Positions 9,047 to 61,482 of a stretch of DNA of 64,000 nucleotides are shown here, piece by piece. Source of the stretch: Thermoanaerobaculia bacterium (GTDB lineage: Bacteria; Acidobacteriota; Thermoanaerobaculia; Multivoradales; UBA5704); assembly GCA_038248205.1 (NCBI GenBank), contig JBBRUC010000001.1, positions 32,480 to 96,479 on the forward strand, read 5' to 3'. How positions within the stretch are numbered: position 1 is the stretch's first letter; every line of letters begins with the position of its first letter. The notes below the pieces were generated by a model, which was given only the letters and a program-made list of their open reading frames with translations, made no database searches and was not told the origin of the DNA. A program made the position numbers and the translations under genes.

Positions 9047-9110
9047 ATTCACCCGGCCCCCATCGCTCTGCCCGACCCAACCACCGTTTGAAGATCCGAG
9101 GCCCCCTCCG

Positions 9111-9797: not shown

Positions 9798-9880
9798 ATC
9801 GGCCGATCAGGAGGATCATCTACAGTGCATCGAATCGCGCGAACCGCCGTCCATCCAACCGAAGCCTCCGGGAAGACTCT

Positions 9881-20026: not shown

Positions 20027-20309
20027 CGATCAGCCCATGGTCGAGCAGGTCGCGCACGAGATCCGTGAGATCCGAGCGCAACACCTCGACTTCGACCTTG
20101 TAATCGCTTTGCAGCCGCTCCAGCGTCTCGCCGAACGTCGAACCTTCGAGCCAAAGGGTCCAAGCCCGGGTGGCGACTTCGTTGAGGCCGTAATAGATCC
20201 CCCCCTCGACGTCGAGGACGACCATCTCACCCCCCAGCTCTCGGGCCAGCACGCCTTCACGGGGGCGAACGACGCTGTGCGGAAGAAGACCCAAGGTTGC
20301 GGTGGTCAT
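20010..20309 (-). CDS. Lasso peptide biosynthesis B1 protein (PqqD-like RiPP recognition element)
   Basis: MTTATLGLLPHSVVRPREGVLARELGGEMVVLDVEGGIYYGLNEVATRAWTLWLEGSTFGETLERL has the PqqD/RRE fold pattern. Start at ATG 20309; the track ORF has a 45-aa upstream extension. Confidence 0.8.
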   Translation of the reverse strand: MTTATLGLLPHSVVRPREGVLARELGGEMVVLDVEGGIYYGLNEVATRAWTLWLEGSTFGETLERLQSDYKVEVEVLRSDLTDLVRDLLDHGLIDVAPA

Positions 20310-20325
20310 GCGGAGAGGAAAATTA

Positions 20326-21276: not shown

Positions 21277-21309
21277 TCGATCGGCAGATTCTGGAGCTGG
21301 CTCGGCGAA

Positions 21310-22995: not shown

Positions 22996-23017
22996 CCGAG
23001 GGGAGACGGGACGAAAA

Positions 23018-23248
23018 TCAGCTCCGGGTGCCTTTTCCGGGGTCGGGTTTGCTATTCGCTCGAGAACCGAAGAAACCGTCTGGATTGCCAAAGTTTCCCG
23101 CCGCCTGCGTCAATCCGGAAAGGTCTCCGAAAACGATCAATCGCGGACTGGAATAGGCGCTCCGGGCGGTCCACGGACGGTCGGCAAATGTCTCAGAGTC
23201 CACTGACTCTCGCATATTTGCATATCGATCGGACCGAGGCTCGACCAT
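23018..23248 (-). CDS. Candidate lasso peptide precursor (A peptide)
   Basis: 76 aa: MVEPRSDRYANMRESVDSETFADRPWTARSAYSSPRLIVFGDLSGLTQ / AAGNFGNPDGFFGSRANSKPDPGKGTRS. Thr sits at leader position -2 (LTQ). The core starts with Ala and has Asp at position 9 (a 9-residue macrolactam, as in paeninodin AGPGTSTPD) and ends in Ser. GGGGG Shine-Dalgarno before ATG 23248. Located immediately upstream of the cyclase. Codons are AT-richer than the genome average. Confidence 0.55.
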   Translation of the reverse strand: MVEPRSDRYANMRESVDSETFADRPWTARSAYSSPRLIVFGDLSGLTQAAGNFGNPDGFFGSRANSKPDPGKGTRS

Positions 23249-23487: not shown

Positions 23488-26400
23488 CTAGTTGCGATGC
23501 GGTGCGCAGAGCAACCCGTTGTTGTAGTCGTCGAGCATCTCGTGCCACGGCGAGGCCTGATTCCAAGCCGAGCTGCTGCCGCGTACGTTGCTGCCGACCG
23601 GGTGGGTCTTCAGCCAGTTGTCGGCAGAGGTGATGATCGAGTCGATGCAGCTCGAGACGTTGCCGACCAGAACGTTCAACTTGGCCGCGATCAGCTGTTT
23701 GGCCAAATCGATCGTCTTGTCGCCCTTGCTCGGGGTGCCGAGAAGCGAGATCGCCTGGGAGACCGAGTAGGTCTTGTTGCCGATCTTGATGCTCTCGACC
23801 GGCCAGGCGCTCGCGTGGTTCTTCCAGTAGCCGATCGTGCCGGTACCCGGCGCCGGAGTGGTCGGCGGGCACTGGACGATGTCGACGTTGATGTCGCCTT
23901 GACCGGTGGTGGGCAGGGAGCCTCCCGAAGAGGGCTGCGTGACCACCGTCCACTTGTACCAACCGGAGGCCCCGTAGTTAAGGTTCTTGCCGTTGGCACC
24001 GACGCCGAGCTGGAACGCCGGCCCGGTGCGGGTGACGTTGATCACCGCGCCGCTGTTGCTGCTGAGTCCGGTCAGGGTTCCGTTGTACCCGGTGTAGTAG
24101 ATCCAGGTTCCCGTGTTGACCGGGCCGCCGTTCTCCGAGTAAGCCGAAGCCATGAGTTCCTTCTTCGGGCTACCGGCGGGGGTGACGGTCGTCCGGCCGG
24201 TGAAAGTGATGCTCACCGTCCAGGCGTTCAACGAGTTGGACAAGCTGCGCAACGTACCGTTCATGTTCGCCGTGCCGTTCGAGTTCTGAATGAACGAGCC
24301 CGGGGCCGGAGTGAACTGGTAATCGGTACCGATGCCCGGGAGCCAGAAGGCATGATTGGCTCCAGCGCCTTGGACCGACGGATCGTTGATCGCTTCGTCC
24401 ACACACTGCGGGTTATTGCTCGGGGAGTTGTAGCCGAAGTCTACGTCGAGCTTCGACTGACCGGCCGCGAGAGCGAACGCCGTGGTGTTCGCCGTGCCGA
24501 TGCCGTCGAGATCGTAGGTCTGCACATAGCCGGCCGGAACGGTCATCACGTCGACCGTCACCGTGTAGTTGCCGGAGAGCAGGTTCGAGAACAGGTAGTT
24601 CCCGTCACCGCTCGTGGTTACGACAGCGACCACGTTGCCGGAGCTGTTGCGCAGCACCACGTCGACGCCGTTGATTCCGAGCTCACCGGCGTCCTGAATG
24701 CCGTCGGCGTCGGTATCGGTCCAGACGCGGTCGCCGACCGAGGCCGTACCGCGGTAGCCGAAGTCAACGTTGAAGTTCGACTGATTGGCCGCGAGAGCGA
24801 CCGTCGCCTTGTTCGGGGTGCCCAGGCCATCGAGATCGTAGGTCTGGGTCAAACCTGCAGGCAGGGTAGAGGTGACGACCTGCACTGAGTAGGTGCCGGC
24901 CAGGAGGTTCTGGAACTGGTAGAGGCCGTCGCCCGCCGTGACCTTGGTGGCGATGACGTTGCCACCGGCGTCGAGCAGGTTGACGGTGACTCCGTTGATG
25001 CCGACTTCGAGCAGGTCCTGCGCGCCGTCGCCGTCGGAATCGATCCAGACCCGGTCACCGATCGAGCCGGTGCCGCGATAGCCGAAGTCGACGTCCGTAC
25101 GATTCTGGCCTCCGGTGATCGAAGCGGCGGCGATGTTCGCCGTCCCGGTTCCGTCGAGATCGTAGGTCTGGGTGAGGCCGGCGGGCAGCGTCGAAGACTC
25201 GACGCGGACCGAATAGCTTCCGGCCGCCAGGTTGGTGAAGGTGTAGTTACCGTCGCCACTGGTAATCGCCGTCTGGAGGACGACGCTACCTGAGCTAAGG
25301 AGCGAGACCGTGACGCCGTTCAGGCCGGACTCGCCGGGATCCTGGACGCCGTTGCCGTTGGTGTCGATCCACAGCCGGTCGCCGATCGAGCCGGTGCCGC
25401 GATAGCCGAAGTCGACGTCGTCGCGTTCCGCCTGAGCGAGCGTAAGCGTGGTGCTCGCGATGTGCGGGGTGGCAATTCCATCGAGATCGAACGTCGGGGC
25501 AAGACCCGCGGGCAGCGTCGAGGTCGCGACGCGGACCGAGTAGCTACCGAGCGGCAGATTGGCGAAGTTGTAGTTGCCGTTGCCGCTCGTCGCGGTGGTG
25601 GCAATGACGTTGCCGCCGTTGTCGAGCAGATCCAGGGTGACGCCGTTGATGCCGGACTCACTCGCGTCCTGGAGGCCATCGCCGTTTTCGTCGAGCCAGA
25701 TACGGTCGCCGATCGCGCCGACGCCCTTGTATCCGAAGTCGGCGTCGGTCCGGTTCTGGCCGGGGCCGAGCATCAGGTCGGTGAAGTTGACCGACGAGAT
25801 CCCGTCGAGGTCGTAACTCGCGGCGAGGCCGGCGGGCAGCGTTGCCGCTTCGATCCGCACCGAGTAGTGGCTCGACGGCAGGTTACCGAACGTGTAGTCG
25901 CCGTCGCCGCTGGTCACCCGGGTCGCCAAGACGTTGCCGCCCTGGTCGAGCAAGGAAACCGTGACGCCGTTGATCCCGTTTTCACCGGCATCTTGGATGC
26001 CGTCGGCGTCGAAGTCGAGCCAGACACGGTCGCCGATCGAGCCGGTACCGCGATAGCCGAAGTCGACGTCGGTCCGGTTCTGGCCGCCGATCAGGCCGAC
26101 CACGGCAAAGTTCGCCGTGCCGATGCCATCGAGGTCATAGGAGGGAACCAGACCGGTCGGGAGGGTGGCGGCTTCGACCCGCACGGCGTAGGAACCGCCC
26201 GGGAGGTTGCCAAAGGTGTAGTTGCCGTCGCCCGCGGTGAGCTGCGAGGCGATGACGTTGCCGCCGCTGTCGAGCAGTGTGACCGTGACGCCGTTCAAGC
26301 CGGCCTCACCGCCGTCCTGGATGCCGTCGTTGTTGAAATCGAGCCAGAGACGATCACCGATCGAGCCGGTGCCGCGATAGCCGAAGTCGACGTCGGCCCG

Positions 26401-29358
26401 GTTCTGGCCGCCCGCGAGGCTCGCCGCGGCGAGGTTCGCCGAGCCGATGCCGTCGAGGTCGTAGGTGGGCGCAAGGCCCGCCGGGAGAGTCGCCGCCACC
26501 ACCCGTACGGAGTAGTTGCCGGCGGGGAGATTGGCGAAGGTGTAGCCGCCGTCTCCGGCGGTTACCTGGGTCGCGAGAACGTTGCCGCCGTTGTCGAGAA
26601 GCTCCACAGTGACGCCGTTGATTCCGGCCTCCCCGGCGTCCTGGACGGTATCGGCGTCGAAATCGAGCCAGACGCGATCACCGATCGAGCCGGTGCCGCG
26701 ATAGCCAAAATCCACGTCGATCCGGTTCTGACCACCGGCCAGAGCGAACAAGGCGATGTGGGCCGTGGCGATGCCGTCGAGGTCGTAGGTCGGAGAGACT
26801 CCCGCCGGCAGGGTGGCCGAGACGACCCGGACCGAGTAGTTGCCCACCGGGAGGTTGGAGAAGGTGTAGTTGCCGTCGCCCGAAGTCACCTGCGATGCGA
26901 CGACGGTACCGCCGGAATTCAAAAGCTCGACGGTGATGCCGTTGAGCCCTGCTTCACCGCCGTCTTGGACGCCGTCGGCGTTGAAATCGAGCCAAACGCG
27001 ATCACCGACCGAAGCCGTGCCGCGATAGCCGAAGTCTACGTCCATCCGGCTCTGTCCGCCGATCAAGGAGACCGAAGCGACGTTGGCCGAGGCCAGACCG
27101 TCGAGGTCGTAGGTCTGGACCGAGCCGGCCGGAAGGGTCGCTGCCGCCACACGCACCGAATAACTTCCGGCGTTCAAGTTCGAGAAGGTGTAGTGGCCGT
27201 CGCCCGAGGTCACCTGGCTCGCGATGACGTTGCCGCCGTTGTCGAGCAACTCGACGGTGACGCCGTTGATGCCGGTCTCGCCGACACCCTGCAAGCCGTT
27301 GCCGTCGGCGTCGAGCCAAACGCGATCGCCGAGCGAACCGGTGCCGCGGTAGCCGAAGTCGACGTTGGTTTTGTTCTCGGCGGCCGCAAGAGAGAAGCTC
27401 GCAATGTTGGCCGAGCTTGTACCGTCGAGATCGAAGGTCGGGGCAACTCCCACCGGAAGGGTAGAGGTTACGACCCGCACCATGTAGCTGCCGGCGGCTA
27501 GATTGTCGAACAGATAGTCGCCGTCGCCGGTCGTTACCTGCGTGGCCAAGACGTTGCCGCCGTTGTCGAGGAGTTCGAGGGTGACGCCATTGATGCCGTT
27601 TTCGCCGCCATCCTGAATGCCGTCGCCGTTGGTGTCGAGCCAGACCCGGTCGCCAACCGAGGCGTCGTTGGCAGCCCCTTCGGAATAACCGAAGTCATAG
27701 GTGAGGACGTTGCCGTTGGTGAGCGTACGGGTGAGCGATTCGCCGCCCGTCGTCGAGGACTTACCCTCCAACGGCTGGCCGGGACCGAAGTTGCTCGCCG
27801 CGACCCGTACTTCATACGTTCCCGGCGAGTCCATGCCGAAGCAGTAGAGGCCGTTGGTGTCGGTACCCGTGTTGTTGGCTACGCACGCCGACCAGTTCGG
27901 GCTCGAAGTCTCGCCCGTGGTGGCCGTAGCGATCACCGATCCGTCGCTCGGACGGACCAGCTCCATCAGAACGCCCGGAATGCCCGCTTCACTCGGATCC
28001 AAAACACCCGGATTCGCTGTGTCCGCCCAGACGAAATCACCCAACAGATAGATCGATTCGTCCGAGCAGGCCGCCACGCGCGGCACATCGTCAGGATCCT
28101 CACCCGGGATCGGGGCGCGGGCCGGTCGCGTCGCACAGGTGTCCGCGAACCAGAAGTTCAGATTCGCGAGGTCCAAACCGATAATCGTGACTTTCCACAT
28201 ACCCGAGGGAAGAGTCGCGCCGCCGTAGACCCAATCCGCATCGCCGGCGAACGGCGAATTGATGCTCGCGATCAGGAACTGCTCCCATTCGAAGCTGCCC
28301 GAGGGGTTATCGTTGAAATAGATGTTGCCGTCCGGATCCGTCACTTCGTAGCGGACGCAGCCGATCCGGTTCGGATCGCCGGGCTCGCCGCGGCGGAAGG
28401 CATCCAAGTTGTTGTCATCCGGCGGTACGCCAGGGCCTTGGACCCCTTCCGGGTTGGCACCGGCGGTCGAGAAGGGGAAGCCGCTGTAGTCGGCGGCGGT
28501 ATCGAAGTCGTCCTCGTCCTCGCACGGATCGAGCGCCACGCCCGAGGGAGAGCCCACGGTCGAATTGGTACCGAAATCGAAGTCGCCGTCGAACATACGG
28601 AGTTCGGTTTCGCCGCCGGGCAGGGTGAAGAAGAACTCGAACGTGCCGTCGTAGGTCGTCGGCGCGGTGAGGAATCCGCCCGGGGGCGGAAACGTGCCCG
28701 GGTAAAGAATCGGGCCGTCGTTGAACAGCTGACGGAACGCGCCAACCAGGCCGAACTGCGGAGTACGGAAGGTCATCGGGTTCGAGGCCGCGACCTTGAT
28801 GTTGCTCTCAAGAACCTCGCCCGGGGCGCACGAGCCGTCGAGGCCGATCACCAAGTTATAGAAGTAGTTGCCGCTGGGCGCCTGGGCAATGGCCCCGTTT
28901 GTGACCGTCACAGCCCACCAATCGTTGTCGGGCATGGCGGCTGAGCTGGAAGTCCAGAGCGGCCCACTCGTCGGATTGACTCCGTTGCCGGTCCAGGTGC
29001 CGATCAGGTTGGCGGGGGCGGTGCTGCCGGTGCGCAGCGGATCCGCATAGAGGGAGTAGATGAGCTGGCGGGAGCCGGCGTCCCAATGCGGACGCGCGGC
29101 GCCATCGGCCATGCCGGTGTCGCCATCGAAGATGTTGACGTCGAACGTCGGGACCGACGCAGGCGCCGCCATGGCAATCTGGACGTTCTGCTCGAACGTC
29201 GCGATGCCGGCGCAACCGAAGCCCATGAAGCGACCGTCGGTGGCGCTTTCCGAGGGAAACGCCGCGAACGGCCCCGGTCCGATCTGAGCCCTCGCAGCGC
29301 CAAGGGCCGTCAGGGCCAGTAGCGCCAAAGTAGCGCACCTACTGTAAAACCTTCTCAT
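23488..29358 (-). CDS. Giant secreted repeat protein 1 (about 1956 aa): conserved N-terminal domain, about 11-12 SdrD-B/Cna-B-like Ca-binding repeats, one X repeat, conserved C-terminal domain
   Basis: Signal peptide MRRFYSRCATLALLALTALGAARAQ, with GGAG before ATG 29358. The roughly 600-aa N-terminal domain is shared with the two downstream paralogs. Tandem roughly 103-aa repeats read GDRVWLDxNGNGxQDxGExGINGVTVxLL...SGDGNYTFxNLPAGxYSVRV...LPAG..PTYDLDG...DVDFGYR, matching SdrD B-domain/Cna-B-like repeats with DxDxDG Ca sites. One roughly 200-aa Cys-bounded X repeat follows. The C-terminal domain GYWKNHASAWPV...LLCAPHRN is nearly identical in gene 2. Confidence 0.8.
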   Translation of the reverse strand: MRRFYSRCATLALLALTALGAARAQIGPGPFAAFPSESATDGRFMGFGCAGIATFEQNVQIAMAAPASVPTFDVNIFDGDTGMADGAARPHWDAGSRQLIYSLYADPLRTGSTAPANLIGTWTGNGVNPTSGPLWTSSSAAMPDNDWWAVTVTNGAIAQAPSGNYFYNLVIGLDGSCAPGEVLESNIKVAASNPMTFRTPQFGLVGAFRQLFNDGPILYPGTFPPPGGFLTAPTTYDGTFEFFFTLPGGETELRMFDGDFDFGTNSTVGSPSGVALDPCEDEDDFDTAADYSGFPFSTAGANPEGVQGPGVPPDDNNLDAFRRGEPGDPNRIGCVRYEVTDPDGNIYFNDNPSGSFEWEQFLIASINSPFAGDADWVYGGATLPSGMWKVTIIGLDLANLNFWFADTCATRPARAPIPGEDPDDVPRVAACSDESIYLLGDFVWADTANPGVLDPSEAGIPGVLMELVRPSDGSVIATATTGETSSPNWSACVANNTGTDTNGLYCFGMDSPGTYEVRVAASNFGPGQPLEGKSSTTGGESLTRTLTNGNVLTYDFGYSEGAANDASVGDRVWLDTNGDGIQDGGENGINGVTLELLDNGGNVLATQVTTGDGDYLFDNLAAGSYMVRVVTSTLPVGVAPTFDLDGTSSANIASFSLAAAENKTNVDFGYRGTGSLGDRVWLDADGNGLQGVGETGINGVTVELLDNGGNVIASQVTSGDGHYTFSNLNAGSYSVRVAAATLPAGSVQTYDLDGLASANVASVSLIGGQSRMDVDFGYRGTASVGDRVWLDFNADGVQDGGEAGLNGITVELLNSGGTVVASQVTSGDGNYTFSNLPVGNYSVRVVSATLPAGVSPTYDLDGIATAHIALFALAGGQNRIDVDFGYRGTGSIGDRVWLDFDADTVQDAGEAGINGVTVELLDNGGNVLATQVTAGDGGYTFANLPAGNYSVRVVAATLPAGLAPTYDLDGIGSANLAAASLAGGQNRADVDFGYRGTGSIGDRLWLDFNNDGIQDGGEAGLNGVTVTLLDSGGNVIASQLTAGDGNYTFGNLPGGSYAVRVEAATLPTGLVPSYDLDGIGTANFAVVGLIGGQNRTDVDFGYRGTGSIGDRVWLDFDADGIQDAGENGINGVTVSLLDQGGNVLATRVTSGDGDYTFGNLPSSHYSVRIEAATLPAGLAASYDLDGISSVNFTDLMLGPGQNRTDADFGYKGVGAIGDRIWLDENGDGLQDASESGINGVTLDLLDNGGNVIATTATSGNGNYNFANLPLGSYSVRVATSTLPAGLAPTFDLDGIATPHIASTTLTLAQAERDDVDFGYRGTGSIGDRLWIDTNGNGVQDPGESGLNGVTVSLLSSGSVVLQTAITSGDGNYTFTNLAAGSYSVRVESSTLPAGLTQTYDLDGTGTANIAAASITGGQNRTDVDFGYRGTGSIGDRVWIDSDGDGAQDLLEVGINGVTVNLLDAGGNVIATKVTAGDGLYQFQNLLAGTYSVQVVTSTLPAGLTQTYDLDGLGTPNKATVALAANQSNFNVDFGYRGTASVGDRVWTDTDADGIQDAGELGINGVDVVLRNSSGNVVAVVTTSGDGNYLFSNLLSGNYTVTVDVMTVPAGYVQTYDLDGIGTANTTAFALAAGQSKLDVDFGYNSPSNNPQCVDEAINDPSVQGAGANHAFWLPGIGTDYQFTPAPGSFIQNSNGTANMNGTLRSLSNSLNAWTVSITFTGRTTVTPAGSPKKELMASAYSENGGPVNTGTWIYYTGYNGTLTGLSSNSGAVINVTRTGPAFQLGVGANGKNLNYGASGWYKWTVVTQPSSGGSLPTTGQGDINVDIVQCPPTTPAPGTGTIGYWKNHASAWPVESIKIGNKTYSVSQAISLLGTPSKGDKTIDLAKQLIAAKLNVLVGNVSSCIDSIITSADNWLKTHPVGSNVRGSSSAWNQASPWHEMLDDYNNGLLCAPHRN
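24430..27700 (-). repeat. Tandem array of about 11 near-identical ~309-bp coding repeats (SdrD-B-like modules) inside giant gene 1; coordinates approximate
   Basis: Recurrent DNA strings such as GTCGCCGATCGAGCCGGTGCCGCGATAGCCGAAGTCGACGTCGG and GACGCCGTTGATGCCG recur with roughly 309-bp periodicity across this span. These are coding repeats, not CRISPR. Confidence 0.7.
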
Positions 29359-29945: not shown

Positions 29946-32900
29946 CTAGTCGCGGTGCGGAGCGCAGAGCAACCCGTTGTTGTAGTCGTCGAGCATGTTG
30001 TGCCACGGCGAGGCCTGAGACCAGGCCGAGCTGCTGCCCCGGACGTTGCTGCCGACCGGATAGGTCTTCAGCCAGTTGTCCGCCGAAGTGATGGTCGCGC
30101 TGATGCAGCTCGACACGTTTCCGACCAGGACGTTCAACTTGGCCGCGATCAACTGCTTGGCCAAATCGATCGACTTGTCGCCCTTGCTCGGCGTGCGGAG
30201 CAGGTTGATCGCCTGAGAGACCGTGTAGGTCTCGTTACCGATCTTGATGCTGGTGACCGGCCAAGCGCTCGCGTGGTTCTTCCAGTAACCGATCGTACCG
30301 GTGCCCGGAGCGGGCGTGGTCGGCGGGCACTGGCCGATGTCGACGTTGATGTCGCCCTGGCCGCTGGTCGGCAGAGCCGAGCCCGACGTCGGCTGGGTCA
30401 CCACCGTCCAGTTCAGCCAGCCCGAACCGCCGTAGTGGAGGTTCTTGCCGTTGGCGCCCGTGCCCACCTGGAACGCCGGACCGACGCGCACCAGATTGAG
30501 CTTGGCACCCGCGGCGCTGCCGGTTCCCGTGAGGGTACCGGTGGCACCCGTGTAGTAGTACCAGGTGGCAGTCTTGATCGGACCGCCGTTCTCGCTGTAG
30601 GCGCTTGCCGCAAGCTCCTTCTTCGGGTTGCCGGCGGGAGCCGTCGTGGTGAAGCCCGAGAAGGTGACGTCCACCGCGAAGCCAAAGTTCGGGTTCGAGG
30701 TGCTTACCAGGGTGCCGGTCAAACGGGCTGTACCGTCGGCCTTCTCGACCAACGAGCCGTTGCCCGGTGAGAAGACGAGATCGGTCGAAATGCCCGGCAG
30801 CCAGATCGCGTGATGGGCGCTCGTTGCGTTGACCGACGAATCGTTGTCGGCCTTGTTGGCGCACTGCACGCAGTCGAAGATGTCGAGGTTGATGTCGCCT
30901 TGGCCGGTCGAGGGATAGCTGCTGCCCGAGGGCTGGGTCGCCGTCCAATGAATCCAGCCGGACGCCCCATAGTGGAGGTTCTTGCCGTTGGCGCCGACGC
31001 CCACTTGGAACGACGGACCGACGTTGGTGATGCTCAAGACGACGCCGGCATTGCCGTCGATGCCCGTCAAGACTCCGCCGAGGTAGCCGTAGTAGCGCCA
31101 GGTGGCCGGATCGATCGGTCCGCCGTTATTGACGTACGCGCTCCCGGCGAGTTCCTTCTTCGGGTTGCCCGGCCCCGGGGTCGTGGTGCGGGCGAAGAAG
31201 TTGATAGCGACCGTGAAGGCGTTGTTCGGATTCGACTGGCTCCGCATCGTACCGGTCAGCGTTGCCGAGCCGTCCGCCTTCTCGAGGAAGGCGCCAGGGT
31301 CGGGGGTGAAGGAGTAGTCGGTGCCGATACCGGGCAGCCACAACGCGTGATTGGCCGCGCTGCCGTTGTACGCCGGATCGTTGTTAGCCTGGTTGGCGCA
31401 GCTCTTCGCGTCGGTCTTGGACTGGTAGCCGAAATCGACGTCGGAGCGGTTCTGGCCCGCAGCCAGTGCCACCGTCGCGCGATGGGCGGTTCCGAGACCA
31501 TCCAGGTCGTAGGTTTGAACGTAACCGGCCGGAAGCGTCGCGCTTTCGACCCGCACCGAGTAGCTACCGGCCGGCAGATTGCCGAACAGGTAGTTGCCGT
31601 TGCCCGAAGTCACCTGGCTGGCGAGGGCGTTGCCACCCGTGTCGAGCAATGTGACGGTGACGCCGTTGATCCCGGCCTCGCCGCCGTCCTGCACCCCGTT
31701 GCCGTTGGCGTCTTCCCACACCCGATCGCCGATCGTCCCTTGCCCCCTGTAGCCAAAGTCGACGTCGGTCCGGTTCTGACCGCCGGTTAAAGCAGCCGTC
31801 GCGATGTGAGCGGTGCCGACTCCATCCAGGTCGTAGCTCGGAACGAGCCCCGCCGGAACGGTCGCCGATTCAACACGGACTTTGTACGTCCCCGCCGGAA
31901 GGTTCGCGAAGGTGTAGTTGCCGTTGCCCGTGGTCACCTGGGTCGCCAGGGCCACGTTGGCAGAGTTGAGGAGAGTAACGGTGACGCCGTTGATCCCGAC
32001 CTCGCCGCCGTCCTGCACACCGTTGGCGTTGAAATCGAGCCAGACCCGGTCACCGAGCGAGGCCGTACCCCGATAGCCGAAGTCCACGTCGGTCCGGTTC
32101 TGAGCCGCCGTCAACGAGGCCGCCGCCGTATGCGGAGTGCCGATCCCGTCGAGGTCGTAGCTCGGGGCCAGACCCGCCGGCAGCGTTGAGGAAACCACCC
32201 GGACCGTATAGTTGCCGGCCGAGAGGTTGGTGAAGTTGTAGGTGCCGTCACCCGACGTCACCTGGGAAGCCACCACGGTGCCGCCGGAATTCAGCAGCTC
32301 GACCGTCACGCCGTTGATCCCGACTTCGCCGCCGTCCTGCACCCCATTGGCGTTGAAATCGAGCCAGACCCGATCGCCGAGCGAGGCCGTGCCCCGGTAG
32401 CCGAAGTCCACGTCCGTCCGGTTCTGTCCCGCCGCCAGAGCGAACGAGGCGCTGTTCGCCGTCCCGAGGCCGTCCAAATCGAACGTCGCTGCCAAGCCTG
32501 CGGGAAGGGTCGCCGGAACCACCTCGACCCGATAGGTACCCGCGACGACGTGGGCGAAGGTGTAGATCCCGTCGCCAGCCGTCACCTGGGTCTCGACGGT
32601 CACGCCGTGCACAGTGTCCACCAAGCGAACCGTCACGCCGTTGATGCCGGTTTCGCCCGCATCCTGGACGCCGTTGCCGTTCGTGTCGTTCCAAACCCGG
32701 TCACCGATCGAGCCGTAGCTGACCGGCGGGCACTCGAACAGGTCGAGGTTGATGTCGCCCTGGCCCGAGCCGACGAGGGTCTCGCCGCCCGACGGCTGGC
32801 TCGTCACCTGCCACTGGTACCAACCCGAGCCACCGAAGTGGAGGTTCTTGTTGTTGGCGCCGACTCCCAGCTGGAAGGCCGGTCCGGTGCTGGAAATCGA

Positions 32901-35900
32901 GATCGAGCCGCCCGCATAGGCGCTCACCCCGACCAGGGTTCCCGAGTAGGACGTGTAGTAGCTCCAGCTCGCCGAATCCGCCACGCCGCCGTTCTCGACG
33001 TAGGCACCAGCGGAAAGCTCCTTCTTCGGGCTGCCCGGAGGAGTGGTCGCGGTGTAGCCCGAGAACAGGATGTCCACCTGGAACCCGTGGGTCGGGCTCG
33101 AAAGGCTGTACATCGTTCCCGTCAGGTGCGCCGTGCCGTCCGCGTTGCGAACGAACGTGCCGTCGACCGGACTGAACTGGAAGTCGGTACCGATCCCCGG
33201 CAGCCAGAACGCGTGGTTGTACGTCGAGCCCAAAACCGCGGGATCGTTGTTGGCGTTGTTTGCGCAGGACGAGCAGTTGCCGAAGTCGACGTTGATGTCA
33301 CCCTGGCCGGACTGCGTGAGCGCCGGACCGCTCGCGGGCTGCGAGGTGACGTTCCACACGAACCAGGCCGACGCCCCGTCGAGCAGGTTTTTGTTGTTGG
33401 CACCCGTGCCGAGCTGGAAGGCGGAGCCGGTGTTGGAAATGCCGATCACCGATCCGGCATACGCATCGATGCCGGTGAGCGTACCGGTGAAGCTCGTGTA
33501 GTACGTAAACGTCGCCGTGTTGACGGGTCCGCCGTTTTCCGAATAGGCGTTTCCGGAGAGCTCTTTCTTCGGGCTGCCCGGAGGAGCCGTCGCGGTCAAG
33601 CCGCTGAGCACCACGTCGACGACGAAGGCCTCGCTCGAATTCGCCGTCCGCCGCACGATGCCCGTCAGGCGAGCGGTTCCGTCCGCCCGCTGTACGAAGC
33701 TGCCGGTCGCCGGAGCGAACTGGAAGTCCAAACCGATGCCGGGCAGGTAGAACGCGTGCCCATCCGGGTTGCTGCCGTAGGCCGGATTGTTGAACGAGCC
33801 CTGCGCGCAGGTCTCGGTGTCGTGCGTGCGATAGCCGAAATCCACGTCGGTGCGATTCTGACCGGCGGCCACGGTGGCCGTTGCCCGGTGCGGTGTCGCG
33901 ACACCGTCGAGGTCATAGGTCGGGCCGAAGCCGGCCGGCAACGTGGTCGAATCGACCACCACCGTGTAGCTTCCGGCCGCCAGGTTGCCGAAGGTGTAGT
34001 TGCCGTCGCCCGAGGTCACCTGCGTCGCGACGACCGTGTTGGTCCCGTCGAGCAGGCGAACGGTGACGCCGTTGATCCCAACCTCGCCGGCATCCTGCAC
34101 ACCGTCGCCGTCGAGATCGCTCCAGACCCGATCGCCCAAGCTGCCGGGCGCCGGAGGCTGCCGGTAGCCGAAATCCACGTCGGTCCGGTTCTGCGACTGC
34201 GCGAGAGCGAAGCTCGCGATGTTCGCCGTACCGGTGCCGTCCAGGTCATAGGTCTGGGCCAAGCCCGCGGGCAGCGTCGCGGTCACCACGCGAACCGAGT
34301 AGTTGCCGGCCGCCAGGTTGTCGAACAAGTAGTTGCCGTTCCCCGAGGTGATTTGGCTGGCCACGACGTTGCCGCCGTTGTCGAGCAGATCAACCGTGAC
34401 GCCGTTGATGCCGTTCTCCCCGCCATCTTGAACGCCGTCGCCATCGGCATCGAGCCAGATCCGGTCGCCGACCGAGGCGTCGTTCGTCGCCGCCTCGGCG
34501 TAACCGAAGTCATACGTTAGCTCGTTGTCGGCCGAAAGCGTTCGGGTGAGCGACTCGCCGCCCGTCGTCGAGGACTTACCTTCCAACGGCTTGCCCGGGC
34601 CGAAGTTGCTTGCCGCGACCCTCACCTCGTAGGTGCCGGGAGCGTCCATGCCGAAGCAGTAGAGACCGTTGATATCGGTTCCCGTGTTGTTCGCCACGCA
34701 CGCCGACCAGTTCGGGCTCGTCGTGTCGCCCGTCTTGGCCGTAGCGATCACCGATCCGTCGCTCGGACGAACCAGCTCCATCAGAACGCCCGGAATGCCC
34801 GCTTCGCCCGGATCCAACACGCCCGGGTTTCCGGTGTCCGACCAGACGAAATCGCCTATCAGGTAGATGGATTCATCCGAACAAGCCGCCACGCGCGGAA
34901 CGTTGTCCGGATCTTCCCCCGGGATCGGATCGCGGGCCGGGCGCGTCGCACAGGTGTCCGCGAACCAGAAATTCAGATTCGCTAGGTCCAGCCCGATGAT
35001 CGTGACTTTCCACATCCCCGAGGGAAGCGTCGCGCCGCCGTAGACCCAATCCGCATCGCCGACGAACGGCGAATTGATGCTCGCGATCAGGAACTGCTCC
35101 CACTCGAAGCTGCCCGAGGGGTTGTCGTTGAAATAGATGTTGCCGTCTGGATCCGTCACTTCGTAGCGGACGCAGCCGATCCGATTCGGATCGCCGGGCT
35201 CGCCACGGCGGAAGGCATCCAAGTTGTTGTCATCAGGGGGAATACCGGGGCCTTGGACCCCTTCGGGGTTGGCGCCGGTGGTCGAGAAGGGGAAGCCGCT
35301 GTAGTCGGCGGCAGTATCGAAGTCGTCCTCGTCCTCGCACGGATCGAGCGCTACGCCGGAAGGCGAGCCGACGGTCGAGGCGGTACCGAAATCGAAGTCG
35401 CCGTCGAACATCCGCAGCTCGGTTTCTCCGCCGGGAAGAGTGAAGAAGAACTCGAACGTGCCGTCATACGTGGTCGGCGCGGTGAGGAACCCGCCCGGGG
35501 GCGGGAAGGTACCGGGATAGAGAATTGGACCGTCATTGAAGAGCTGACGAAACGCGCCAACCAGACCGAACTGCGGAGTCCGGAAGGTCATCGGGTTCGA
35601 GGCCGCGACCTTGATGTTGCTCTCAAGAACCTCGCCCGGGGCGCACGAGCCGTCGAGGCCGATCACCAAGTTATAGAAGTAGTTGCCACTGGGCGCCTGG
35701 GCAACGGCCCCGTTGGTGACCGTCACGGCCCACCAATCGTTGTCCGGCATGGTGCTTGAGCTGGAAGTCCAGAGCGGCCCACTCGTCGGATTGGCTCCGT
35801 TGCCGGTCCAGGTGCCGATCAGATCGGCCGGCGAGGTACTGCCATTGCGCAACGGGTCCGCATACAGAGAGTAAATGAGCTGGCGATTGCCGACGTCCCA

Positions 35901-36182
35901 ATGAGGACGGGCGGCGCCGTCGGGCATCCCGGTTTCGCCGTCGAAGATGTTGACGTCGAACGTAGCATTGGCGGCCGGCGCAGCCATCGCGATTGTGACG
36001 TTCTGCTCGAACGTTGCAATCCCGGCGCAACCGAAGCCAAGGAAACGTCCATCCGTGGCGCTCTGCGACGGAAACGCCGCAAAGGGACCCGGCCCTATCT
36101 GGGCTGATGCTCTACCGAACCCCAACAAGGCTCCTATCGCCACCAAGAGTACAGCTCTCAAAACTTGTCGCTGAGCTTTCAT
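29946..36182 (-). CDS. Giant secreted repeat protein 2 (about 2078 aa): N-terminal domain, 2 SdrD-B, 2 X repeats, 4 SdrD-B, 3 X repeats, C-terminal domain
   Basis: Signal peptide MKAQRQVLRAVLLVAIGALLGFGRASAQ, starting at ATG 36182. The N-terminal 600 aa and the C-terminal 130 aa are over 90% identical to gene 1 (for example QIGPGPFAAFPS(E/Q)SATDGRF(M/L)GFGCAGIATFEQNV). Five copies of the roughly 200-aa X repeat read C..N.NDPA..G....HAFWLPGIGTD..F.P..G.F......GTA.LTG.......P...F.V...F.G.T.T.PPGSPKKEL...AY.ENGG.......YYT...GTL.G.......I....TGPAFQLG.GAN.KNL..G.SGW..W.V.SQP.......GQGDIN.D...C. Confidence 0.8.
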   Translation of the reverse strand: MKAQRQVLRAVLLVAIGALLGFGRASAQIGPGPFAAFPSQSATDGRFLGFGCAGIATFEQNVTIAMAAPAANATFDVNIFDGETGMPDGAARPHWDVGNRQLIYSLYADPLRNGSTSPADLIGTWTGNGANPTSGPLWTSSSSTMPDNDWWAVTVTNGAVAQAPSGNYFYNLVIGLDGSCAPGEVLESNIKVAASNPMTFRTPQFGLVGAFRQLFNDGPILYPGTFPPPGGFLTAPTTYDGTFEFFFTLPGGETELRMFDGDFDFGTASTVGSPSGVALDPCEDEDDFDTAADYSGFPFSTTGANPEGVQGPGIPPDDNNLDAFRRGEPGDPNRIGCVRYEVTDPDGNIYFNDNPSGSFEWEQFLIASINSPFVGDADWVYGGATLPSGMWKVTIIGLDLANLNFWFADTCATRPARDPIPGEDPDNVPRVAACSDESIYLIGDFVWSDTGNPGVLDPGEAGIPGVLMELVRPSDGSVIATAKTGDTTSPNWSACVANNTGTDINGLYCFGMDAPGTYEVRVAASNFGPGKPLEGKSSTTGGESLTRTLSADNELTYDFGYAEAATNDASVGDRIWLDADGDGVQDGGENGINGVTVDLLDNGGNVVASQITSGNGNYLFDNLAAGNYSVRVVTATLPAGLAQTYDLDGTGTANIASFALAQSQNRTDVDFGYRQPPAPGSLGDRVWSDLDGDGVQDAGEVGINGVTVRLLDGTNTVVATQVTSGDGNYTFGNLAAGSYTVVVDSTTLPAGFGPTYDLDGVATPHRATATVAAGQNRTDVDFGYRTHDTETCAQGSFNNPAYGSNPDGHAFYLPGIGLDFQFAPATGSFVQRADGTARLTGIVRRTANSSEAFVVDVVLSGLTATAPPGSPKKELSGNAYSENGGPVNTATFTYYTSFTGTLTGIDAYAGSVIGISNTGSAFQLGTGANNKNLLDGASAWFVWNVTSQPASGPALTQSGQGDINVDFGNCSSCANNANNDPAVLGSTYNHAFWLPGIGTDFQFSPVDGTFVRNADGTAHLTGTMYSLSSPTHGFQVDILFSGYTATTPPGSPKKELSAGAYVENGGVADSASWSYYTSYSGTLVGVSAYAGGSISISSTGPAFQLGVGANNKNLHFGGSGWYQWQVTSQPSGGETLVGSGQGDINLDLFECPPVSYGSIGDRVWNDTNGNGVQDAGETGINGVTVRLVDTVHGVTVETQVTAGDGIYTFAHVVAGTYRVEVVPATLPAGLAATFDLDGLGTANSASFALAAGQNRTDVDFGYRGTASLGDRVWLDFNANGVQDGGEVGINGVTVELLNSGGTVVASQVTSGDGTYNFTNLSAGNYTVRVVSSTLPAGLAPSYDLDGIGTPHTAAASLTAAQNRTDVDFGYRGTASLGDRVWLDFNANGVQDGGEVGINGVTVTLLNSANVALATQVTTGNGNYTFANLPAGTYKVRVESATVPAGLVPSYDLDGVGTAHIATAALTGGQNRTDVDFGYRGQGTIGDRVWEDANGNGVQDGGEAGINGVTVTLLDTGGNALASQVTSGNGNYLFGNLPAGSYSVRVESATLPAGYVQTYDLDGLGTAHRATVALAAGQNRSDVDFGYQSKTDAKSCANQANNDPAYNGSAANHALWLPGIGTDYSFTPDPGAFLEKADGSATLTGTMRSQSNPNNAFTVAINFFARTTTPGPGNPKKELAGSAYVNNGGPIDPATWRYYGYLGGVLTGIDGNAGVVLSITNVGPSFQVGVGANGKNLHYGASGWIHWTATQPSGSSYPSTGQGDINLDIFDCVQCANKADNDSSVNATSAHHAIWLPGISTDLVFSPGNGSLVEKADGTARLTGTLVSTSNPNFGFAVDVTFSGFTTTAPAGNPKKELAASAYSENGGPIKTATWYYYTGATGTLTGTGSAAGAKLNLVRVGPAFQVGTGANGKNLHYGGSGWLNWTVVTQPTSGSALPTSGQGDINVDIGQCPPTTPAPGTGTIGYWKNHASAWPVTSIKIGNETYTVSQAINLLRTPSKGDKSIDLAKQLIAAKLNVLVGNVSSCISATITSADNWLKTYPVGSNVRGSSSAWSQASPWHNMLDDYNNGLLCAPHRD
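31400..32700 (-). repeat. Tandem SdrD-B-like coding repeats (4 units) inside giant gene 2; a further 2 units lie at about 33830..34560; coordinates approximate
   Basis: Same ~309-bp unit as the gene 1 array. Confidence 0.6.
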
Positions 36183-36591: not shown

Positions 36592-38325
36592 CTACCGCGC
36601 CCTGGAACTCCGCATCCCGGAGAAACCGAAGTCGAAGGTCAAAACGTTGGCCGCGGTGAGGGTGCGGGTCAAAGAGCTGTTCCCGGTCGTCGCCACTTGG
36701 CCGAAGAGCGCCCCTCCCGAGGTGAAGTTACGCGCCGCCACACGAACCTCGTACGTGCCCGGAACATCCTGACCAAAGCAGTACAGACCGTTCGAGTCAA
36801 CGCCCGTGCTGCTCGCCCGGCAGGCTGCCCAGTTCGGACTCGTCGGGTCGCCCGTGACCGCGGTGGCCAGTACCACGCCGTCGCTCGGACGGATCAACTC
36901 CATCACCACACCCGGCATGCCCACCTCGCCCGGATCCAGAACCCCCGGATTCGCCGTGTCCGCCCAGACGAGATTTCCCAAGAGATAAATCGATTCGTCC
37001 CCGCAGGCTGGTACCCGCGGCACGTCGATCGGATCTTCGCTCGGTAGCGGCTCATGAGCCGGACGCGTCGCGCAAGTCTTCGCATACCAGAAGTTCAGAT
37101 TGGCCAAGTCCAAGCCTACGATCGAAACCTTCCAGCTTCCCGCGGGAAGCAGGGCGTCGCCGTAGACATAGTCCGCATCCCCGACGAACGGCGAGTTGAC
37201 GCTCGCGATCAGAAATTGCTCCCACTCGAAGCTGCCCGAAGGGTTGTCGTTGTAATAGACATTGCCGACCGGATCCTGGACTTCGTAGCGTACGCAACCG
37301 ATGCGGTTCGGATCCCCCGGCTCACCGCGCCGGAATGCGTCGAACTTGTTGTCGTCGCTGGGAATGCCTGGCCCCTGGACCCCTTCGGGATTGGCTGCGA
37401 CGACGACGAATGGAAAGTTGCCGTAATCGGCAGGCGTATCGGGGTCGTCCTCGTCCGCACACTCGTCGAGAAACAGGCCCGAAGGCACTCCGCGGGCCGC
37501 ATCGGTGCCGAAATCGAAATCGCCATCGATCAGGCGCAGCTCCGTCTCGGATGCGGAAAGATTAAAATAGAGGTCGAAAGAGCCGTCGTAGGTGGTCGGC
37601 GCGGAAACGAAACTACCGGTAAGCGGCGCCGTCGGCAAGGAGCCCGGATAGAGGATCGGCAGGTCTGCTGCGAGCTGTCGTAGCGCGCCGACCAAACCGA
37701 AGTGAGAGGTGTTGAAGCTGACGGGGTAGGAAGCCGCGATCTTGAAGTTGCTTTCCAATATTTCGCCTACTTCGCAGGCTCCATCCGTATCGATCACCAG
37801 ATTGTAAAAGTAGTTTCCGCTTGGCGTCTGGGCGATGGCAGCGTTGGTGATTGTCACCCCCCACCATGCGTTGTCCGGCATGTTCGCCGCGGTGGAAGTC
37901 CACAGCGGACCGGCGATTGGATTTCTCTTATTGCCGTACCAAACACCGATTAAATCGGCCGGCAAAATACTCCCTTTGCGCGACGGATCGGCGTGCAGCG
38001 CAAATTTCAGCTGGCGGGTGCCAAGATCCCAGTGGGCGGTGTCCATACCGTCGAGCCCACCGGTTTCTCCATCGAATAGATTGAGGGAGAAGGTCGAGGT
38101 GGACGCGGGCACGGCAAGCGCTACCTGAACATTGCGTTCCAAGGTCGCGAGGCCCGCACAGGCAAGGCCTAGGAATCGCCCGTCCGTAGCGCTCTCCGAC
38201 GGGAAAGACGCGAGAGGCTTTGGCCCCAATTGGCCTCGCGCGGAAACGAACCCCAGGAGAGTTCCAAGGATCGAGAAAAGAGCGACCCGCAAAACATTCG
38301 ACAACGAACGAATCACGCTACTCAT
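36592..38325 (-). CDS. Truncated paralog 3 (about 577 aa): N-terminal domain of the giant proteins only, no repeat region or C-terminal domain
   Basis: Signal peptide MSSVIRSLSNVLRVALFSILGTLLGFVSARGQ. Roughly 50% identical to the N-terminal domains of genes 1 and 2 (FDGDFDFGT, NPEGVQGPGIP.DDN, DAFRRGEPGDPNRIGCVRYEV, GSFEWEQFLIAS, WKVSIVGLDLANLNFW, YCFG.D.PGTYEVRVAA.NF). AAGGGGGG Shine-Dalgarno before ATG 38325. Confidence 0.75.
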   Translation of the reverse strand: MSSVIRSLSNVLRVALFSILGTLLGFVSARGQLGPKPLASFPSESATDGRFLGLACAGLATLERNVQVALAVPASTSTFSLNLFDGETGGLDGMDTAHWDLGTRQLKFALHADPSRKGSILPADLIGVWYGNKRNPIAGPLWTSTAANMPDNAWWGVTITNAAIAQTPSGNYFYNLVIDTDGACEVGEILESNFKIAASYPVSFNTSHFGLVGALRQLAADLPILYPGSLPTAPLTGSFVSAPTTYDGSFDLYFNLSASETELRLIDGDFDFGTDAARGVPSGLFLDECADEDDPDTPADYGNFPFVVVAANPEGVQGPGIPSDDNKFDAFRRGEPGDPNRIGCVRYEVQDPVGNVYYNDNPSGSFEWEQFLIASVNSPFVGDADYVYGDALLPAGSWKVSIVGLDLANLNFWYAKTCATRPAHEPLPSEDPIDVPRVPACGDESIYLLGNLVWADTANPGVLDPGEVGMPGVVMELIRPSDGVVLATAVTGDPTSPNWAACRASSTGVDSNGLYCFGQDVPGTYEVRVAARNFTSGGALFGQVATTGNSSLTRTLTAANVLTFDFGFSGMRSSRAR

Positions 38326-38601
38326 GGTTACCCCCCTTAGCGGCCGACACACTCCGCCGCAGGGGCTTACTTTGCGCCAACTGAAAGCTCGTATAGGCCG
38401 GACAAAATAGCGCAGCGCGCGATTGTCCCCCCATCGGCGAATCGGGGTTCTGAGTTAGGATCGCCCTCTCTTGCGATTGCGGCCAACGAACAACCTCTGA
38501 TAAGGCCAGTTCCCCCGTGAGCTACGAGCGATTTATCCGCCGAGCCCTTCGATCGAGCTGGCCTTCCGCGCGATGAGGTTCCCGGCCGGAGGTGTTGTAG
38601 C

Positions 38602-40848
38602 GTGATTCGAGTTCGGTTATTCGGCGGCTTCGAGGTCTGGCACGGAGATCGGCAGGTGCGAGGCTTCGAGTCCCAGAAGGTCCGAGCCCTCTTCGCCTAT
38701 TTGGCCTGTCAGTCGGCGCGCGCATTCAGTCGCGATCACCTCGCCGGCCTGCTCTGGCCCGAACAGGAAGACGACGGCGCACGGCACGCGCTGCGCCAAG
38801 CGCTCTATAACTTGCGTTCTGCGCTTCCCGGGCGTGACTCGGCGAACCCGCCGCTTCTGGTGAGCCACGGCGAGATCCGTATCAACCCGGCGGCGGGCCT
38901 TTGGGTCGACGTCCATGCCTTCGAGGAGTCGATCAAGCGTGGCGCCGCGCGGGACGCCGCCGACCCTCATCACCTCGCGACCGCGGTCCAATTGTATCGA
39001 GGCGATTTTTTGGTGGGTTTTTTCGTTCGCGACAGCAACACGTTCGAGGAGTGGCTGATCGCCGAGCAGGAGCGCCTTCGAGAGGCGACGGTCGAGGCGC
39101 TACACACCTTGATCGAGAGCTACCGGCGCCGGGGCGAATATCGATTTGGCCTGCACTATGCCCGACGGCTCGTCGCCCTGGAACCTCTCGCCGAGGAACC
39201 CCGACGCAACCTGATGCAGTTCTACGCGATGACCGGGCGCCGCAGCCAGGCGCTTGCCGAGTACGAGGATCTGGTGGCCCTCCTCGATCGCGAACTCGGT
39301 GTCGATCCCTTAGGGGAAACCCTGGAACTCTACGAATCGATCCGGGACGACGCGCCGACGCAAGGGGTTCCTCTCGCGGACGGCGAGCCGATCGGCCCGA
39401 TCATCCCCCTGGCGGGGCGCCGCGGCGCTTGGGATCGGCTTCGCGACAGCTGGCGCAGGGCTCTCTCCGGAGAGACCCCCGTCACTTTGGTCGTGGGAGA
39501 GACCGGCATCGGCAAAACCCGGCTGATCCGTACTTTTCTCGACGCGGTGAGCGGCTCTCGCCGAATCGTCGTCCTGCGCGGCGCAGGCCGGCCCTCGACT
39601 CTGCCGATACCGTTTCTCCCCTGGCTCGACCTCTTGCGTGGCGCGTTTGACGAGGCGACCGAAGGCGGCGGCCCCGACCCCGCGGCGCTTACGCCCCAAA
39701 AGTTCGGAGACCTCGCACGCCTTCTGCCCGAGATCGGATCTCGCCGCCCCGAGCTACCCTCTCCGGCGCCGTTGAAACGCGCAGCCGAGCGGCGACGGTT
39801 CTTCGAGAACGTGATCGACTACCTCGGCGCTTTTTGCTCCGCCGGCCCAGGAGTGGCGACCGTGCCGTTGGTGATCTTTCTCGACGACCTTCACCTGGTC
39901 GACGAGGACTCCCTGGAGCTTCTCTACGCGGCGATCTCTCGATTGCATGGGCAACCCTGTTGGTTCCTGATCGCCTCCGAGGTGATCGACCCGTCCGAGG
40001 CCCCGCCCTTCTTCTCTGAAGTTATCGCGCTCGCCGAGCGCGTCGAGATTCGACGGTTCGACGACAGCGCGATCGAAGAGATCGCCGCCTCCTTGGTTGG
40101 CGACGATCGTGCGAGAGAGCTGTCTCACTGGCTCGCCGGCCGGAGTAAAGGCCTGCCGTTCGCGATCGCGGAGCTGATCAACCTGCTCTGGGACGAGGGG
40201 CTGCTGACGCCTGGCGAAAACGGCATATGGCAGCTCGCATCCTCTTTGGAAACCGCGGAGGTGCCCACCAGCGGAGAACTCGGCGCCCTGCTCGGCGAAC
40301 GGGTCCGGCGGCTCCCCTCCTCGATCCGACGGCTGGCGATCCAAGCGGCGTTTGCCGGCGGCAGCTTCGAGGCCGACCTGCTCCAAAAGGCGGCTGACGA
40401 ACACCCGGCGGTGGTCGAAATCGGCCTTGAGCTGCTGCTCAAGCGGTGGCTGATCCGCCAGAGCATTCGGTACTGGTCGACTTTCGGCCGGGCATCCGAT
40501 GTCGCACTGTGGAACCGGGGCGCCCGGCGGGGCAGCTTCGAGTTCGCGCACCAGCAGGTGCGCGAGGCCCTGGCGTCTTCCGTCGTGCCGGAACGGCAAA
40601 GAGCCCTCCACGCCCGGATCGCCTCGACTCTAGAGACTCTGGCCGCGGATCATCTGGAGAGCCACTTCGAAGAACTCGCCGGGCATTACCTGGCAGCCGA
40701 GATGTGGAACCGAGCCCTCCCCTACCTTGAACTGGCGGAGAACCGAGCCCGGGGCCTGTTCGCCCGCACCGCCGCGGCGCGCTACGCCGCCGCGGCAGCC
40801 GAGGCGCGATTCCACCTCACCACCGAAAAATCTGGAACGACAGAGTAA
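38602..40848 (+). CDS. AfsR-like SARP-family transcriptional activator (OmpR-type winged helix, BTAD, NB-ARC-type P-loop ATPase, C-terminal helical repeats)
   Basis: N-terminus VIRVRLFGGFEVWHGDRQVRGFESQKVRALFAYLA (SARP DNA-binding domain). The BTAD region has MQFYAMTGRRSQALAEYEDLVALLDRELGVDP. Walker A VVGETGIGKTRL. GTG start at 38602, divergent from paralog 3. Confidence 0.8.
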   Translation: MIRVRLFGGFEVWHGDRQVRGFESQKVRALFAYLACQSARAFSRDHLAGLLWPEQEDDGARHALRQALYNLRSALPGRDSANPPLLVSHGEIRINPAAGLWVDVHAFEESIKRGAARDAADPHHLATAVQLYRGDFLVGFFVRDSNTFEEWLIAEQERLREATVEALHTLIESYRRRGEYRFGLHYARRLVALEPLAEEPRRNLMQFYAMTGRRSQALAEYEDLVALLDRELGVDPLGETLELYESIRDDAPTQGVPLADGEPIGPIIPLAGRRGAWDRLRDSWRRALSGETPVTLVVGETGIGKTRLIRTFLDAVSGSRRIVVLRGAGRPSTLPIPFLPWLDLLRGAFDEATEGGGPDPAALTPQKFGDLARLLPEIGSRRPELPSPAPLKRAAERRRFFENVIDYLGAFCSAGPGVATVPLVIFLDDLHLVDEDSLELLYAAISRLHGQPCWFLIASEVIDPSEAPPFFSEVIALAERVEIRRFDDSAIEEIAASLVGDDRARELSHWLAGRSKGLPFAIAELINLLWDEGLLTPGENGIWQLASSLETAEVPTSGELGALLGERVRRLPSSIRRLAIQAAFAGGSFEADLLQKAADEHPAVVEIGLELLLKRWLIRQSIRYWSTFGRASDVALWNRGARRGSFEFAHQQVREALASSVVPERQRALHARIASTLETLAADHLESHFEELAGHYLAAEMWNRALPYLELAENRARGLFARTAAARYAAAAAEARFHLTTEKSGTTE

Positions 40849-61051: not shown

Positions 61052-61097
61052 TCGCCAGTGAACCTTTTTCTGTCCCACCACCGGCGGACCCGGCCGC

Positions 61098-61394: not shown

Positions 61395-61482
61395 AGGTCT
61401 CTTCCTTCCCATTGTGCCGTCAAAGCGTAGCGCCACACCGGCGCTGGGGGTATCGTGCGCCGCGCCAACGCCCGGAGGCGAC

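Follow-up and report, generated by a model that had tools for sequence, protein, structure and literature searches.

Genes 1 and 2 and their repeat modules

The stretch of DNA analysed here (64,000 nt in full, hereafter the window) originates from a Thermoanaerobaculia bacterium of the Acidobacteriota (Multivoradales, UBA5704; assembly GCA_038248205.1, contig JBBRUC010000001.1, positions 32,480 to 96,479 of the forward strand) and carries on its minus strand two genes for very long exported proteins, gene 1 (23488..29358, 1956 amino acids) and gene 2 (29946..36182, 2078 amino acids). Both proteins are mosaics of SdrD_B repeats (B) and of a second, Cys-bounded module, designated X, which is a real all-beta domain of a large unnamed family present in no curated library. 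Each gene starts with ATG and encodes a typical signal peptide; the ATG of gene 2, at 36182, is followed by MKAQRQVLRAVLLVAIGALLGFGRASAQ.

The domain maps were made with our own profile hidden Markov models (HMMs), and the boundaries were set by motif and Cys positions. Gene 1 reads signal peptide, N domain (28030..29286, ca. 420 amino acids), one degenerate repeat B' and 10 SdrD_B repeats (together 24424..28047), one X (23869..24405, residues 1712-1890 of the open reading frame (ORF), 179 amino acids) and a C domain of 126 amino acids (23491..23868). In the ORF and translation of gene 2, the signal peptide and N domain (34845..36101, ca. 420 amino acids) are followed by a first SdrD_B block of one B' and two B repeats (33825..34862), the pair X1 (33273..33809, residues 816-994, 179 amino acids) and X2 (32730..33266, 179 amino acids), a second block of four SdrD_B repeats (31419..32711), the pair X3 (30870..31400, 177 amino acids) and X4 (30327..30863, 179 amino acids), and a 126-residue C-terminal domain with the motif GYWKNH (29949..30326). 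The first-pass annotation of this DNA had counted about 11 B repeats in gene 1, in agreement with B' plus 10, and had placed the X copies correctly to within about 30 nt. Its layout of gene 2, N-2B-2X-4B-3X-C, captured the interleaving but gave the second group a third X that is not there: gene 2 holds four copies (2+2) instead of the five proposed, and gene 1 one.

The B repeats are bona fide SdrD_B (PF17210, E 2e-147 over seven stretches, above the gathering score), while neither the N domain nor the C domain produced any match in Pfam, NCBIfam or the PDB. The full-length MSCRAMM Sdr model NF012181 scored 323 bits against a cut-off of 2500 and covered the B repeats only, and no LPXTG motif or SD-repeat tract was seen in the translated C-termini; genes 1 and 2 do not qualify as MSCRAMM Sdr adhesins of the SdrC/SdrD kind. 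A PEP-CTERM signal (PF07589) was likewise lacking in the Pfam scan and at the C-termini of both proteins, and scans with Pfam and NCBIfam returned no RTX or type I secretion system (T1SS) signal in the window proteins.

From Cys to Cys, the five X copies of the window measure 177-179 amino acids, somewhat less than the ca. 200 first estimated, and in all five the first and the last residue is Cys, as had been described. They are 50-62% identical in pairwise comparison over their full length, and all match the profile of the X family (defined by alignments A1 and A3) at profile positions 1-184 with E-values of 1e-66 to 1e-74, which leaves no room for a chance resemblance. The conserved core consists of G44-A46-G50, PxGSP80..L84, AY89..GG94, W101.YY104, G109.L.G113, Q132.G.GA137...N141, G145.S.W149, QP158 and GD.N173; aromatic residues are conserved at many positions (W21, Y89, W101, Y103/104, F131 and W149), and near-invariant polar residues (K81, E83, Y89, N92, Q132, N141, D171, N173) lie in conserved loops. 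The motifs had been called strictly conserved; conservation is indeed high, but it is not strict, since HAFW varies to HAFY, HALW and HAIW, and PGSPKKEL to PGNPKKEL.

As the first reading of the sequence had it, the module proved unrecognisable to the domain libraries. For Pfam-A (24,736 models, 2025 copy), an HMM hit to the X region had to come close to the gathering score or reach it to count as a match; a score above the curated cut-off was required for NCBIfam (18,950 models, June 2026, with choice-of-anchor and lectin-type models included). Pfam-A gave zero matches to three window copies scanned alone, and neither library matched X when whole genes or 10 full-length relatives were scanned; the sole choice_anch_X trace of NCBIfam (E 0.12) fell inside a B repeat. 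When 45 diverse X domains, including all five of the window, were run one by one against Pfam and NCBIfam, no family matched more than one member (best E 0.016), and PDB sequences yielded no match to X either by phmmer with the single sequence of X2 or with the 45-sequence profile. These profile searches could have exposed a described choice-of-anchor or lectin family, and no known family emerged. A literature search found nothing relevant to X; among the relatives whose source names were looked up, X-only proteins are called "hypothetical protein" and one mosaic "SdrD B-like domain-containing protein".

X resembles SdrD_B in being an all-beta extracellular module that is repeated, also in tandem, in giant surface proteins; the two share the same polypeptides, and each has conserved Asp/Asn motifs. 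They differ in that B has ca. 106 amino acids and no Cys pair, whereas X has 179 amino acids, is Cys-bounded and makes up whole proteins by itself. Isolated X gave no match to PF17210 even at E≤1, and hhalign returned probabilities below 1% for X against the B repeat (0.4%), the N domain, the C domain and its own other half. With no relation between X and B and none between the halves of X, hhalign rules out that X arose from SdrD_B by doubling or divergence, or that it is an internal duplication.

Distribution, architectures and mosaic evolution

Word-indexed homologue searches were insensitive for the X family (1, 10 and 22 matches), and an exhaustive search was needed. An HMMER profile search of 1.84 billion cluster representatives identified 1,736 proteins with X at E≤1e-3, 1,138 at E≤1e-10 and 382 at E≤1e-30. 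Scanning each species by a single representative genome confirmed 119 X stretches in the 75 loci that were kept. All 75 are from metagenome-assembled genomes (MAGs), distributed over Planctomycetota (28), Acidobacteriota (27, mostly Thermoanaerobaculia including Ca. Multivoradales), Verrucomicrobiota (10), Pseudomonadota (5) and other or unclassified lineages (5). The phylogenetic check that had been proposed for the module hence gave a spread over several phyla, mostly uncultured Acidobacteriota, Planctomycetota and Verrucomicrobiota, and a family of this size and range rules out X as a private feature of genes 1 and 2. Taken as a whole, the initial description was right about an uncurated real domain and its main features, and wrong about copy number and size; what it described is a large multi-phylum family and not a local oddity.

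One member from a EukProt transcriptome (P0151, 753 amino acids) looks eukaryotic, with a signal peptide, three X-like domains, a hydrophobic glycosylphosphatidylinositol (GPI)-like tail, linkers that are Pro/Thr-rich of the APTPAPTPVPT type or Ser/Thr-rich, and several Trinity isoforms. Either the X family reaches a protist, or the gene was transferred, or the sequence is a contaminant.

The majority of the top representatives (119 of 150) are proteins made of X only, with two (52), three (24), four (20), one (11), five (7) or six (5) modules. Where the N-terminus of an X-only protein is complete, a signal peptide is nearly always present, and in many of these proteins the last Cys is the penultimate residue. 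A minimal subfamily of ca. 240 amino acids consists of a signal peptide, one X and PEP-CTERM (PF07589), as in the small exosortase-sorted proteins known for that tag, which the window proteins lack. PEP-CTERM is a sorting tag only and says nothing on the fold of X; its presence on this subfamily places X on the cell surface or in the matrix of exopolysaccharide-producing bacteria. Other X proteins end in tails resembling those of the type IX secretion system (T9SS) or MYXO-CTERM, and elsewhere X is combined with PKD, HYR, F5/8C, Laminin_G_3, DUF7507 and MopE domains. X is accordingly secreted, autonomous and multivalent, with loops that are conserved across phyla.

The first homologue found, which is also the closest in the database (L001), has a signal peptide and four X, with neither B nor C domain. 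At this locus (8379..10870) the third X is interrupted by a frameshift at about position 10000, which splits the frame into two called proteins of 484 and 289 amino acids (P0001), by either an assembly error or pseudogene formation.

A constant association of X with the GYWKNH domain, which the first-pass annotation had put up for checking, was not found, as no more than about 8 among the 150 representatives carry the C domain. In other proteins it is duplicated (C-C) or lies N-terminal to X, which marks it as a globular domain; a sorting signal would be confined to the C-terminus. Mosaics of B and X capped by N and C are found mainly in Thermoanaerobaculia-type Acidobacteriota; the giants there reach 5,565 amino acids (L009, with four X among about 40 B) and X occurs singly or in pairs along the B array. 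A few other loci combine X and B without the N and C caps.

Comparison with related loci supports the modular recombination between B and X that had been proposed from the window alone. Gene 1 is collinear with its orthologue L005 (N-B11-X-C), at 76-90% identity domain by domain, its X being 87% identical. In gene 2, collinearity with L002 and L003, at 75-85% (X1 of L002, 84%), extends over the 5' half (N-B3-X1-X2-B) but not over the 3' half. The second X pair of L002 and L003 duplicates their first one (X3 to X1 73%, X4 to X2 70%), while X3 and X4 of the window are only 50-62% identical to any X of these two loci. These relations support the X-X pair as one putative unit of exchange. At the DNA level, genes 1 and 2 are 65-80% identical in the first 300 nt at the signal-peptide end, 85-97% in the bulk of the N domain and 84-88% in the C domain; in the repeat core, identity drops to about 45-65%. 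Since identity is high in N and C and low between them, the pattern suggests that the gene ends were kept similar by recent duplication or gene conversion and that the repeat core may have been exchanged as a cassette.

Upstream of gene 2 lies a third tandem paralogue of 586 amino acids (36592..38352, minus strand), which encodes a signal peptide, the N domain that genes 1 and 2 also have and, as far as repeats go, just the initial degenerate SdrD_B-like domain before it stops, without a B array, X or C domain. Its DNA is 57-83% identical to the 5' end of gene 2.

Terminal cysteines, predicted fold and function of X

Of 262 full-length X domains, 175 have Cys at both ends, 52 at neither end and 35 at one end only (odds ratio 32, p 5e-25, in a co-occurrence test that is not tree-corrected). 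The terminal cysteines are thus gained and lost together, and the pair behaves like the disulfide staple that had been suggested as a possibility. In gene 1 the lone X has no other Cys within 70 residues, for which reason a disulfide within the domain, from N- to C-terminus, is the natural reading; we infer such a bond between the two terminal Cys of X from these sequence patterns. The commonest junction between tandem X modules is CxxC (39 of 125), and gene 2 has C-SS-C between X1 and X2 and C-VQ-C between X3 and X4.

With bonded termini, the chain would enter and leave X at one point. X could then act as a plug-in, forming bead-like strings through CxxC junctions of 2-3 residues, and could be inserted between the Ca-binding SdrD_B repeats of a stalk while leaving the stalk uninterrupted. 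Both the tight bead-like arrays and the easy insertion between B repeats would therefore be explained, if the bond is as predicted.

AlphaFold2 produced a confident model for the X of gene 1 from 45 sequences (predicted local distance difference test (pLDDT) 97.7, predicted template-modelling score (pTM) 0.91), following a first model for X2 of gene 2 from seven sequences (pLDDT 79.7, pTM 0.80). X is predicted to be all-beta with 11 strands, mostly connected by short hairpins. Strands 6 and 7 are linked by a conserved loop of 30 residues that includes short helical turns and holds the best-conserved motifs (PxGSPKxEL, AYxxNGGPxD). The conserved glycines that lie within strands of the model (G50, G109, G113, G134, G145) would fit a tightly coiled small barrel.

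Searches with Foldseek, using both models against the PDB and also BFVD, gave no match at E≤1e-3. The weak top PDB matches of both models were almost all avidin, streptavidin, hoefavidin and shwanavidin, which are 8-stranded meander barrels, with nitrobindin, dirigent and Phm7/Fsa2 barrels at lower ranks and an avidin-family protein also among the BFVD matches. With E≤1e-3, or a template-modelling (TM) score of at least 0.5 on both normalisations, as the threshold for structural membership of the avidin family, the best match was 6rtq_A at E 0.086 (prob 0.94, TM 0.39 by query and 0.50 by target, root-mean-square deviation (rmsd) 6 Å). Moreover, hhalign of the X profile (A3) against core streptavidin gave a probability of 0.15%, and this lack of profile similarity speaks against X as an avidin homologue. 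Avidin-type and calycin-like barrels, nitrobindin and dirigent included, are nevertheless the sole fold class that Foldseek repeatedly returned, sharing with X antiparallel, mostly hairpin-connected strands and a target TM of up to 0.50. X departs from them by a non-significant match (E≥0.07, rmsd 6-8 Å), by about three extra N-terminal strands and the conserved 30-residue loop, and by its deployment in tandem arrays and as adhesin inserts.

Judged from sequence and architecture, X is an autonomous secreted domain of ca. 180 residues and not an SdrD_B variant, and it probably serves as a binding module plugging into SdrD_B stalks. In genes 1 and 2, with their order of signal peptide, N head, B stalk, X and C, the X modules would be displayed laterally and would be the parts through which these two giant, adhesin-like paralogues bind. 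The ligand would be a common one, bound multivalently, and most likely a glycan or a component of the matrix. This is preferred to a spacer role because X alone can form a whole secreted protein and because the conserved loops are rich in aromatic residues, Asn, Gln and Lys across phyla. A comparable layout is known from MpIBP of Marinomonas primoryensis, in which sugar- and peptide-binding modules are at the distal end of a stalk of Ig repeats. Like the window proteins, MpIBP is secreted and has a long Ca-stiffened repeat stalk with few globular non-stalk modules near one end. The domain families, however, are unrelated, the window proteins are without an RTX/T1SS signal, LPXTG or PEP-CTERM, and X may be spaced along the stalk and not confined to its tip.

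Several observations weigh against X as a binding module. The predicted function is inferred from architecture and conservation, the cysteine test behind the plug-in geometry takes no account of the tree, and clustering of gene neighbourhoods at 76 loci gave no specific partner of X-only proteins that would hint at a ligand, the recurrent neighbours being generic hybrid histidine kinases and C39-ABC exporters. In addition, X is no better conserved than B between orthologues (83-87% vs 70-90%), with no sign of special constraint. The last point would equally suit a purely structural X, which as a spacer or joint would lengthen or stiffen the stalk as SdrD_B does and have no ligand of its own, and so would the interleaving of X at intervals in very long B arrays such as that of L009 and the prevalence of Gly, Pro and aromatic residues among the invariant positions. 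We regard this as unlikely, because X-only proteins and proteins with a single X and PEP-CTERM are hard to fit with a spacer: most members have only X behind the signal peptide, and a protein consisting of spacer alone is hard to explain. Disulfide-linked termini, if so formed, would add nearly no end-to-end length, and the best-conserved segments of X are long loops and not strands.

The fold comparison opens another way to read the conserved aromatics (W21, Y89, W101, Y103/104, F131, W149), namely as those of a distant avidin- or calycin-type up-and-down barrel that sequesters a small molecule, such as a vitamin, siderophore, haem-like cofactor or peptide. The nearly uniform avidin matches at the top of both Foldseek searches, the nitrobindin, dirigent and Phm7/Fsa2 barrels below them and the BFVD match all point in this direction. 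Yet no match reached E≤1e-3, rmsd values were 6-8 Å, the query-normalised TM stayed below 0.4, hhalign gave the X profile next to no similarity to streptavidin, and avidins and lipocalins are not known to be deployed as up to six tandem barrels or as inserts in adhesin stalks; sequestration by such a barrel therefore seems quite improbable. The near-invariant polar residues of the loops (K81, E83, Y89, N92, Q132, N141, D171, N173) might instead belong to a small extracellular enzyme domain, for example a polysaccharide- or peptide-modifying one. To this idea we give hardly any credence, as catalysis is made unlikely by the 2-6 tandem copies, which are typical of binding modules and not of catalytic domains, and by the zero matches to enzyme families in Pfam, NCBIfam and the PDB; nor was a recognisable catalytic dyad or triad or a conserved partner gene found.

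The binding-module interpretation can be extended, quite tentatively, to X as the founder of an unclassified superfamily. In this extension X might be a new disulfide-closed variant of the meander beta-barrel that, like a lectin, binds a ubiquitous component of matrix or envelope multivalently. It would be shared by four or more bacterial phyla and one or more protists, and would be a new building block of the matrix of uncultured soil and water bacteria.

Genomic context and significance

Directly downstream of gene 1, a lasso-peptide biosynthesis cluster occupies 19535..23248 on the minus strand. It comprises a candidate lasso precursor (23018..23248) with the canonical leader ...AYSSPRLIVFGDLSGLTQ followed by AAGNFGNPDGFFGSRANSKPDPGKGTRS, a lasso cyclase or Asn-synthase-like gene (21310..23091; NF033535, E 8e-56), an HprK-related kinase (20326..21276; weak match) and a lasso B2 protease (19535..20026; NF033537, E 1.5e-18), all on the minus strand. 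Of the related loci, 11 have a similar lasso precursor, 17 the Asn-synthase-like gene and 17 the kinase gene. Between the lasso cluster and gene 1 lie two strong terminators (23473-23452 and 23430-23410). On the other side, a SARP/BTAD and AAA_16 regulator (38602..40848, plus strand), with homologues in 16 related loci, adjoins the paralogue cluster and is followed by a Ser/Thr protein kinase (41797..44340, plus strand). These conserved neighbours of the mosaic giants, the lasso-peptide genes and the SARP-type regulator, look like lineage synteny. They were set aside as functional partners, as the strong terminators separate the lasso genes from gene 1.

The G+C content falls to 0.566 at 60001..62000, against ca. 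0.65 elsewhere, and no tRNA gene was found anywhere in the window.

As a domain family X is new, but the modular adhesin-like extracellular proteins to which it belongs are a familiar class and not a new kind of system, and its practical stakes are modest. Acidobacteriota, Planctomycetota and Verrucomicrobiota are dominant groups in many soils and waters, and their surface biology is almost unannotated; more than 1,700 clusters of secreted proteins consist in large part of X. If the domain were named and provided with a model, boundaries, a confident structure prediction and the putative Cys staple, the annotation of thousands of MAG proteins would improve. With 179 amino acids, X is also a compact target that can be expressed for work on structure and ligand, and the termini-together plug-in geometry, if true, would explain how modules are shuffled into the repeat stalks.

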